Shown piece by piece: positions 59,361 to 59,941 of a stretch of DNA of 64,000 nucleotides. The notes under the pieces are model-generated. The model was not told the origin of the DNA. It ran no database searches and worked only from the letters and a program-made list of their open reading frames with translations. Within the stretch, counting starts at the first letter, position 1, and each line of letters starts with the position of its first letter. Origin of the DNA: Podarcis liolepis (taxonomy: Eukaryota); the NCBI GenBank assembly GCA_965112155.1, contig OZ218102.1. The stretch is one strand, 5' to 3'. The position numbers and the translations under genes are program-made.

Positions 59361-59512
59361 GCTCATGACAGTCCAGTGAGAGCTATGACTTGGTCACATA
59401 ATGACATGTGGATGTTGACAGCAGACCATGGGGGATATGTGAAATATTGGCAGTCCAACATGAACAACGTCAAGATGTTCCAGGCACATAAGGAGGCGAT
59501 TAGAGAGGCCAG
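59361..59512 (+). CDS. WDR33: WDR33 exon 6 (WD40), canonical donor
   Basis: [50 protein letters not shown]; weak donor AG|GTTTAT. Confidence 0.94.
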
Positions 59513-59882
59513 GTTTATACACAATATACCATTTTCTGTAGTTCCTATTTCCATGATTAGACTGTTCTCTAAGTGTATTCTGGGTGCAGATATGCATGGG
59601 TATTGTCAGATTCTGGGAAATGTTTTGCGCCACATAAACGTATTTTCTTTTGTTTCCACAATTTCACTGATTTGCTGGCATATCTCTGAAATAGTGTTGT
59701 CCCGGTATCTGCCTCTGCAATATGTTAGAGATGTGTTTGTCTGCTGCATTTTGCACTGGTATTGGTTACTTTTTATATATGATCACAATGTGTATCAGTT
59801 ACTCTCTTTTTATGCTCACTTGTGTACGATGACAATTTCATTCCAAATAAAGAATTCAGTATTTAATAATATAATTGAATAA
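59513..59882 (+). CDS. WDR33: Intron-6 read-through tail of a short WDR33 isoform (v2-like, predicted 331 aa total)
   Basis: Frame stays open across the donor: [30 protein letters not shown]...IIE*; similar to the human short-isoform tail as recalled; AATAAA cluster at 59846-59941. Confidence 0.7.
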
Positions 59883-59941
59883 AATATAATCCAGAAATAA
59901 AGCAGCTGCATAGTTCTCACAACATAAAAGAGCTAAATAAA
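59846..59941 (+). terminator. Intronic poly(A) signal cluster in WDR33 intron 6
   Basis: AATAAA at 59846, 59878, 59896 and 59936; TGTA (CFIm) at 59791 and 59823. Confidence 0.75.

Follow-up and report, generated by a model that had tools for sequence, protein, structure and literature searches.

A predicted squamate counterpart of the human WDR33v2 (NET14) terminal exon in intron 6 of Podarcis liolepis WDR33

Short WDR33 isoforms and intronic poly(A) sites

In the human isoform WDR33v2 (V2, or NET14), two WD repeats are followed by a hydrophobic tail of 118 aa that is encoded by intron 6, which is 1668 nt long and inefficiently spliced; the protein is localised to the ER and was reported to bind STING (PMC11019558, PMC11445923). 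Its poly(A) signal, PAS0, lies 12 nt before the stop codon, is cleaved within that codon and is of moderate strength (0.26), and 3'RACE showed that PAS3 (exon 7) and PAS5 (intron 7) were used whereas PAS1, PAS2 and PAS4 were not (PMC11019558, PMC11445923). V2 was found to be ribosome-associated, the tail was required for ER localisation, the loss of V2 changed STING oligomers, and V2 analogues in Drosophila and Nematostella were claimed (PMC11019558). V2 fell by about 30% when CFIm25 was knocked down and stayed the same when the target was CstF64 or the CPSF subunit FIP1; V1 and total WDR33 did not change in any of the three knockdowns (PMC11445923).

WDR33 is also shown for human and zebrafish as a PCF11-attenuated gene, and for HeLa cells it is listed as such on both of the counts used in that study: when PCF11 was depleted there, intragenic cleavage fell and WDR33 mRNA rose (log2FC 0.66, padj 0.026; PMC6458999). 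In CSTF3 (CstF-77), feedback through intron 3 was demonstrated directly, and this intron combines a weak conserved donor with a weak conserved poly(A) site; the short product of Drosophila su(f) lacks a stop codon (PMC3708835). The literature that we searched, which covered few subscription papers, held no perturbation of WDR33, CPSF160 or CPSF30 bearing on the intron 6 site, no direct test of WDR33 autoregulation and, by title or abstract, nothing on an intronic site of lizard WDR33. The string 'autoregul' does not occur in the available part of the review PMC11331416, and the available parts of PMC11831233, PMC10664987 and PMC10394034 (with its text supplements) contain nothing on the intron 6 site.

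The core of the system is already published: the isoform is known, as are the poly(A) site that makes it and the depth of its conservation. What the lizard sequence adds, on the basis of protein translations and one assembly, is a switching of reading frames and a possible stop-less outcome.

The WDR33 locus, its exon 6 donor and its poly(A) signals

The window is a stretch of 64,000 nucleotides from Podarcis liolepis (contig OZ218102.1), and the gene of interest in it is WDR33, on the plus strand. Coding exons 2-6 have AG/GT ends and encode 208 residues, of which 206-207 are identical in the bird, snake, opossum and squirrel isoforms (Table 1). The Pfam WD40 match in exon 6 (E = 1.1e-4) falls under the curated cut-off. 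Provided that the gap is sized correctly, intron 6 measures 1694 nt, with 1638 bases known; this agrees with the approximately 1.7 kb given by the original prediction, although that figure was itself inferred, the end of the intron being inside the gap of 132 N.

Table 1. Features of the WDR33 locus, in window coordinates
Feature	Position	Strand	Basis or remark
First coding exon (exon 2, CDS part)	55394..55597	+	tblastn 100% to bird isoform residues 1-68; GT donor
Exon 3	57585..57653	+	tblastn vs bird isoform; AG/GT ends
Exon 4	58199..58303	+	tblastn vs bird isoform; AG/GT ends
Exon 5	58826..58921	+	tblastn vs bird isoform; AG/GT ends
Exon 6, 152 nt; last WD repeat retained in short isoform	59361..59512	+	Pfam WD40
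Weak 5' splice site, CAG/GTTTATAC	59510..59520	+	weakest among six donors
First 11 read-through codons, conserved to teleosts	59511..59543	+	contain TGTA; pyrimidine run to TAG 59541
Proximal tail, 75 codons, one frame in amniotes	59511..59735	+	frameshift-aware alignment
Hydrophobic segment 1, tail residues 6-24	59526..59582	+	KD19 1.58; absent from original prediction
Hydrophobic segment 2, aa 252-271	59640..59699	+	best KD19 1.63
Hydrophobic segment 3, aa 283-298; frame sauropsid-only	59733..59780	+	alignment and hydropathy
Distal tail: conserved DNA, frames differ among mammals, bird, snake, lizard	59736..59866	+	frameshift-aware alignment
TGTA (CFIm25 motif), distal	59791..59794	+	
TGTA 19 nt upstream of hexamer 1	59823..59826	+	human PAS0 UGUA ~20 nt upstream (PMC11445923)
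AATAAA 1, orthologue of human V2 PAS0	59846..59851	+	12 nt then TAA; mammalian C-terminal residues map in frame 3
TAA, V2 stop in 7/12 named mammals, human cleavage site	59864..59866	+	out of frame here; PMC11019558
AATAAA 2, overlaps in-frame stop TAA 59880-82	59878..59883	+	
AATAAA 3	59896..59901	+	
AATAAA 4	59936..59941	+	
Assembly gap, 132 N	61151..61282	.	conceals intron 6 acceptor and first 76 nt of exon 7; human PAS3 position
Exon 7, visible 3' end and donor	61283..61304	+	

The lack of a transposon in intron 6 had also been pointed out. Self-BLAST gave zero matches there and one weak inverted pair, but introns 3-5 likewise had no self-BLAST match, and the absence therefore carries little weight and was rejected as evidence for a module. 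A GC-rich MITE-like element occurs in two copies, one in intron 2 (56148-57045) and the other in intron 7 (62662-63397); it has terminal inverted repeats of about 30 nt and many internal hairpins, and the copies account for most of the sub-threshold Rfam miRNA matches. Intron 1 holds decayed LINE-like reverse-transcriptase remnants at 48500-49600, without a Pfam match, which we take to be CR1, and intron 4 holds a (TAC)12 microsatellite (58481-58515). Upstream genes were seen at 4839-5150, 16016-16426 and 35261-35863; SAP130 lies upstream on the same strand (Pfam SAP130_C, E = 3e-28), and the next upstream exons on that strand, which have no Pfam match, are presumably AMMECR1L-like and then POLR2D-like. 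The order SAP130, AMMECR1L-like, POLR2D-like, WDR33 agrees with that of the human locus.

The exon 6 donor matches RAGT (positions +3 to +6) at one of four positions, whereas the other five donors match at three or four, and its U1 duplex is the weakest of the six (-5.6 kcal/mol, against -6.8 to -11.9 for the others). Both measures bear out the weak donor of the original prediction. A U12-type donor was considered for intron 6 and rejected, the sequence being unlike the GTATCCTT consensus. Past the junction, the frame stays open to the TAA at 59880-82, so that the junction codon and 122 more make a tail of 123 codons and a product of 331 aa, both as predicted. When the known part of intron 6 was dinucleotide-shuffled 5,000 times, no open frame of at least 123 codons appeared, and shuffling its first 388 nt gave one in 0.06% of cases; read-through at the other five donors runs for 7-23 codons only. 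The residues R-[F/S]-I open the read-through in all 14 named amniote isoforms and in 14 of the 17 named frog and fish isoforms, from which we infer a donor with a pyrimidine at +3 and an A at +5 across bony vertebrates, that is, a weak donor conserved across vertebrates.

Two other splice-like signals were noticed in intron 6. A pyrimidine run ending in TAG (59530-59541) resembles an acceptor; it overlaps a TGTA, lies within the 33 nt conserved to teleosts and ranks fifth among 42 YAG sites in intron 6 by pyrimidine count. Frog and fish residues are compatible with a retained AG at 59541, and the site, which we regard as a weak lead, might act as a decoy acceptor in defining the terminal exon. 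The other is a consensus-like donor, TTG/GTGAGTCC, at 59959-59969, 26 nt past the start of hexamer 4, whose U1 match (-9.2 kcal/mol) is the best of 94 GT sites in intron 6 and exceeds that of the real donor. If used, it would place the stop 79 nt ahead of a junction, a geometry for NMD, or U1 bound there could mask hexamer 4; a single such donor in 1.6 kb may also be due to chance. A structured RNA was rejected for intron 6, since none of 41 Rfam matches fell within 59300-61300 and the fold z-score was -0.52.

Apart from the four AATAAA hexamers, which span 96 nt, the 1638 known bases of intron 6 contain none. Four within 90 nt were found in 0.16% of local dinucleotide shuffles (P = 0.0016) and in one of 300 block shuffles of the whole window, so that the predicted arrangement of four hexamers behind two TGTA motifs holds in its coordinates and is clustered beyond chance; further TGTA motifs lie at 59537 and 59574. 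We assign hexamer 1 to PAS0 because of its spacing, a TGTA preceding it by 19 nt and a TAA following after exactly 12 nt, and because the C-terminal residues of 7 of the 12 named mammals map there. The cross-species support for the predicted cluster is limited to this hexamer. None of the four has a clear GU-rich downstream element, and the patch 59850-59949 is 51% A. Early intron 7 carries AATAAA at 61874, 61936, 62128 and 62492, which are candidates for the human V2 PAS4/5 or V3 sites. Another cluster of four within 90 nt was seen on the minus strand (41172-41193, four in 27 nt); it is probably a simple A-rich repeat.

The lizard stop lies 29-31 nt past hexamer 1. Cleavage at 19 of the 20 positions from +9 to +28 after this hexamer would leave an mRNA without a stop, and a cut equivalent to the human one would also yield a stop-less lizard mRNA; hexamer 2 overlaps the stop, and thus any cut directed by hexamers 2-4 would retain it. 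In the bird, too, the isoform runs on through PAS0 (the record is marked as partial), whereas that of the snake ends 16 nt ahead of PAS0. An in-frame stop 12 nt after PAS0 is absent in lizard, bird, snake and 5 of 12 mammals, suggesting that it is a human-type detail and not a family-wide one. The loss of one T in either of two T5 runs (59770-74, 59807-11) would create a snake-like stop at about 59830, so a single homopolymer slip would be enough to remove the stop-less inference. If the conserved site does give stop-less RNA, sauropsids would be a natural experiment in which attenuation and the output of a membrane isoform are separable.

Conservation of the tail in more than one reading frame

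A search with the 123-aa tail alone gave 22 matches among 47 candidates (E from 3.9e-43 to 3.2e-13). Thirteen were named: a bird (73%), pit vipers (77%), two marsupials (59%) and nine placentals (59-70%). One further named mammal from a separate search brought the set to 14 named amniote tails, 12 of them mammalian. HMMER, run against 1.84 billion representatives, gave three matches, one of which was already named. The analyses used named homologues only, leaving out 9 of the 22 tail matches, two of the three HMMER matches and others; turtles, crocodilians and other lizards lie outside the sample, and nucleotide conservation was read from protein translations, many of which are automatic gene predictions. 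The E-values place the module far above a neutral intron, which is the test that the original prediction had set for it.

The age proposed there, at least that of amniotes, was true and understated, as frog and teleost isoforms retain the first 11 codons. Among 17 named frog and fish short proteins, 14 (one frog and 13 teleosts) are identical at 7-9 of the first 11 read-through residues, and three are not; a zebrafish protein is named WDR33 isoform 2. Only the first 11-27 residues are shared by the fish tails. A profile search for non-amniote tails returned 26 matches of 3877 candidates with no named non-amniote among them, so that homology of the tail past residues 11-27 appears limited to amniotes at that sensitivity. 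The frog tail contains the residues N-K-E-F, which translate the PAS0 context (frequency of 0.0002 in shuffles, for a motif picked post hoc). By its sequence, then, the lizard module is the squamate orthologue of the human WDR33v2/NET14 terminal exon. We also noticed a 'low quality' Gracilinanus protein (P0124, 353 aa) that has no WD domains and a tail match of 55%, possibly a retrocopy of a V2 message.

The 14 named amniote tails were then compared with the window DNA by a frameshift-aware alignment. Over codons 1-75, the 13 tails that span them share one frame, with one in-frame 3-nt indel and zero frameshifts; 48-61 of the 75 residues are identical (48-58 in the 11 mammals), and 32 positions are invariant in the 13 named isoforms. 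This count leaves out Nomascus, which diverges beyond codon 40, and Anolis P0086, in which this junction is not used. A one-codon deletion is common to the lizard and snake tails and suggests a squamate origin. Beyond codon 75, all 11 mammals that reach 59736 carry a +1 shift there, whereas bird and snake are unshifted at that point and shift near 59772-75, and more shifts occur near 59782, 59802-20 and 59830.

The lizard DNA nevertheless still encodes the residues that the others read in frames 2 and 3, in blocks of 8/8, 3/3, 8/9, 9/10 and 9/11. Full resampling of the lizard's synonymous codons, a test that presumes saturated wobble positions, destroyed these off-frame matches (P ≤ 0.00075 in four blocks and 0.03 in the fifth, which has 3 residues), suggesting that the DNA is conserved beyond the need of the lizard protein. 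With 40% resampling, single blocks were non-significant (P 0.08-0.40) and the three mammal blocks jointly gave 0.0075. Whichever frame is read, the distal region is hydrophobic (GRAVY 0.95, 1.43 and 1.77 in the three frames, with 0, 0 and 1 stops); the proximal off-frames carry 5 and 4 stops, and the T fraction is 0.41 in the tail segment against 0.32 in the rest of intron 6. An open frame seems to be maintained across the amniote tails, 13 of 14 having 104-120 residues and ending between about 59827 and 59871, though the absence of truncated tails is partly built in because the search recovers only long open ones.

In the proximal zone, 64 of the 73 distinct differences are single-base changes, and their mean BLOSUM62 score is -0.30. 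The means of the differences range from -0.63 to +0.35, as compared with -0.55 ± 0.39 for a no-selection null and 0.0 to 0.54 for WDR33 N-termini taken at similar identity; the value of -0.30 falls between these two references, and the spectrum gives no clean separation of the models. That the 73 distinct substitutions include no nonsense change has a chance of about 0.06. We infer that the RNA sequence, together with the upkeep of an open frame of hydrophobic character, is the main object of selection, and that the identity of tail residues counts for less. If amniotes do read the same DNA in different frames, residues past codon 75 are barred from sequence-specific contacts with STING, and selection is then more likely to act on the RNA signals. 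The comparison thus adds a testable point to a question left by the human papers, namely why intron 6 is conserved.

The hydropathy of the lizard tail peaks at KD19 values of 1.63, 1.58 and 1.47. Two hydrophobic stretches had been predicted (segments 2 and 3); both are present but marginal, with a KD19 maximum of 1.63, and a third one at tail residues 6-24 had been missed. The second of them was overstated, mammals using another frame there. The window of segment 1, in place or shifted by 2-4 residues, ranks third or better in every one of the 14 named amniote tails. The best 19-residue Kyte-Doolittle mean (1.63) compares with a mean of 2.01 for base-shuffled DNA, and the hydropathy of the whole tail, 0.78 against 0.73 ± 0.22 for base-shuffled DNA (P = 0.41), equals the composition null. 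By an unweighted sum on the Hessa scale, the lizard tail was the least favourable of eight. AlphaFold with a 6-row alignment gave four helices at low confidence (mean pLDDT 54.5, pTM 0.28), and a known domain in the tail was rejected, as it matched 0 Pfam families. ER insertion of the lizard tail is plausible by homology, and membrane insertion is marginal by hydropathy.

Competing explanations and relation to known systems

We read intron 6 as a whole, with a probability of about 0.75, as carrying the squamate WDR33v2 (NET14) composite terminal exon, under RNA-led selection and with a relocated stop. The locus itself displays a donor that departs from consensus, a conserved U-rich stretch of intron of about 330 nt, and UGUA and AAUAAA spaced as in the functional human site. 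By analogy with the human work, the weak donor would slow the removal of intron 6, and CFIm on UGUA together with CPSF (WDR33/CPSF30) on AAUAAA would win in some transcripts, which would terminate in intron 6 or else retain it and end slightly downstream. The product would join 208 aa of WDR33 to the hydrophobic tail; a full propeller would be impossible and an ER destination probable. Each such event would cost one full-length message, and the site would therefore be a built-in attenuator, one that would respond to at least PCF11 and CFIm. With the lizard stop now lying 16 nt beyond the point of human cleavage, hexamer 1 would give mostly stop-less RNA, and the 331-aa product would come from hexamers 2-4 or later sites.

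The original prediction held that the module could be a sensor of CPSF activity, and one alternative makes this its primary role: the level of WDR33 would set the use of its own site by negative feedback, in the style of CSTF3 intron 3 and PCF11 intron 1, with the tail secondary. The pairing of a weak donor with a weak conserved poly(A) site is indeed the CSTF3 design, and su(f) offers a precedent for a stop-less product (PMC3708835); PCF11 depletion does raise WDR33 in HeLa cells, with attenuation of the gene shown in zebrafish (PMC6458999), and the conservation is independent of frame. However, V2 did not change upon knockdown of FIP1 or CstF64, knockdown of CFIm25 cut V2 without raising V1 (PMC11445923), the PCF11 table, in the part available, names no intron (PMC6458999), intron 6 is small where CSTF3 intron 3 is very large, and human V2 is ribosome-associated with a tail needed for ER localisation (PMC11019558). 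The sensor role was therefore overstated: the response to PCF11 speaks for it and the lack of response to FIP1 and CstF64 against it, and as the primary function we hold it possible but doubtful. Two marks of the autoregulatory class are found here, a host gene for a 3'-processing factor and a weak conserved donor, and the large intron of the CSTF3 type is not; we regard the site as attenuator-like and as a candidate member of that class.

The same data could be turned around, so that a sequence-specific membrane protein, a STING regulator conserved in reptiles, would be what is selected and the RNA signals would merely produce it. The 32 of 75 invariant proximal residues in 13 named isoforms without a frameshift or stop, the 0.06 chance of zero nonsense changes among 73 substitutions, the altered STING oligomers after loss of human V2 (PMC11019558) and the hydrophobic, Cys-rich character of most frog and fish tails would all fit. 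We nevertheless think it unlikely, given that the strongest hydrophobic window of 4 of the 12 mammals falls in the distal 45 residues, for which the lizard uses other frames, that the differences are mostly single-base (64 of 73) with a near-neutral BLOSUM mean of -0.30, that fish tails share only the first 11-27 residues, and that the hydrophobicity is no more than composition predicts (P = 0.41). An explanation of about the same low likelihood is that the short isoform arises mainly by retention of intron 6 and ends in exon 7 or intron 7, hexamers 2-4 being unused by-products of an A-rich patch. The use of PAS3 and PAS5 but not PAS1, PAS2 or PAS4 in human (PMC11019558, PMC11445923), the 51% A of the patch and the intron 7 hexamers agree with this; on the other hand, so tight a cluster is rare in local dinucleotide shuffles (P = 0.0016), the relocated stop falls precisely on hexamer 2, and the position of PAS3 is concealed by the assembly gap. 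That the intron is simply neutral and AT-rich, with its open frame and hexamers due to chance, would account for a hydrophobicity set by base composition and for the second four-in-90 cluster on the minus strand, but it is already refuted by cross-species conservation (tail E-values across amniotes; open-frame P ≤ 0.0006) and deserves next to no credence.

A bolder version, to which we give still poorer odds than to any of these except chance, puts a vertebrate-wide RNA attenuator first, through which CPSF would throttle WDR33. Its parts would be the weak donor, the adjoining conserved 30-nt element, the U-rich run, UGUA and PAS0; the tail credited with STING regulation would be a hydrophobic anchor indifferent to frame, carried along by U-rich codons. 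In lizards and birds, frameshifts would have moved the stop beyond the PAS0 cut, PAS0 RNA without a stop would go to decay as pure attenuation, downstream hexamers would have been gained for the protein, and neighbouring signals would then split attenuation from isoform output.

Set beside the known systems, the composite terminal exon that we favour resembles CSTF3 intron 3 in its 3'-processing host gene, weak conserved donor, upstream UGUA and intronic hexamer; that intron, however, is nearly half of its gene, as compared with about 1.7 kb for lizard intron 6, and CSTF3 short products give little or no protein whereas human V2 is translated (PMC3708835). In PCF11-dependent attenuation WDR33 is itself a target, which amounts to cross-regulation by PCF11, and the available part of that paper does not name intron 6 as the site (PMC6458999). 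The lizard differs from human V2 in having its distal tail in another frame, its stop 16 nt beyond the human cleavage site, three extra AATAAA within 96 nt and weaker hydropathy. It shares with WDR33v2/NET14 of human and rat the gene, the intron and the junction, with read-through after residue 208; the tail is 123 aa as against 118 aa in human V2 and about 60% identical to the mammalian isoforms, intron 6 is about 1694 nt as against 1668 nt, and the PAS0 hexamer has its UGUA 19 nt upstream, as against about 20 nt in human V2, and its TAA 12 nt downstream in both.
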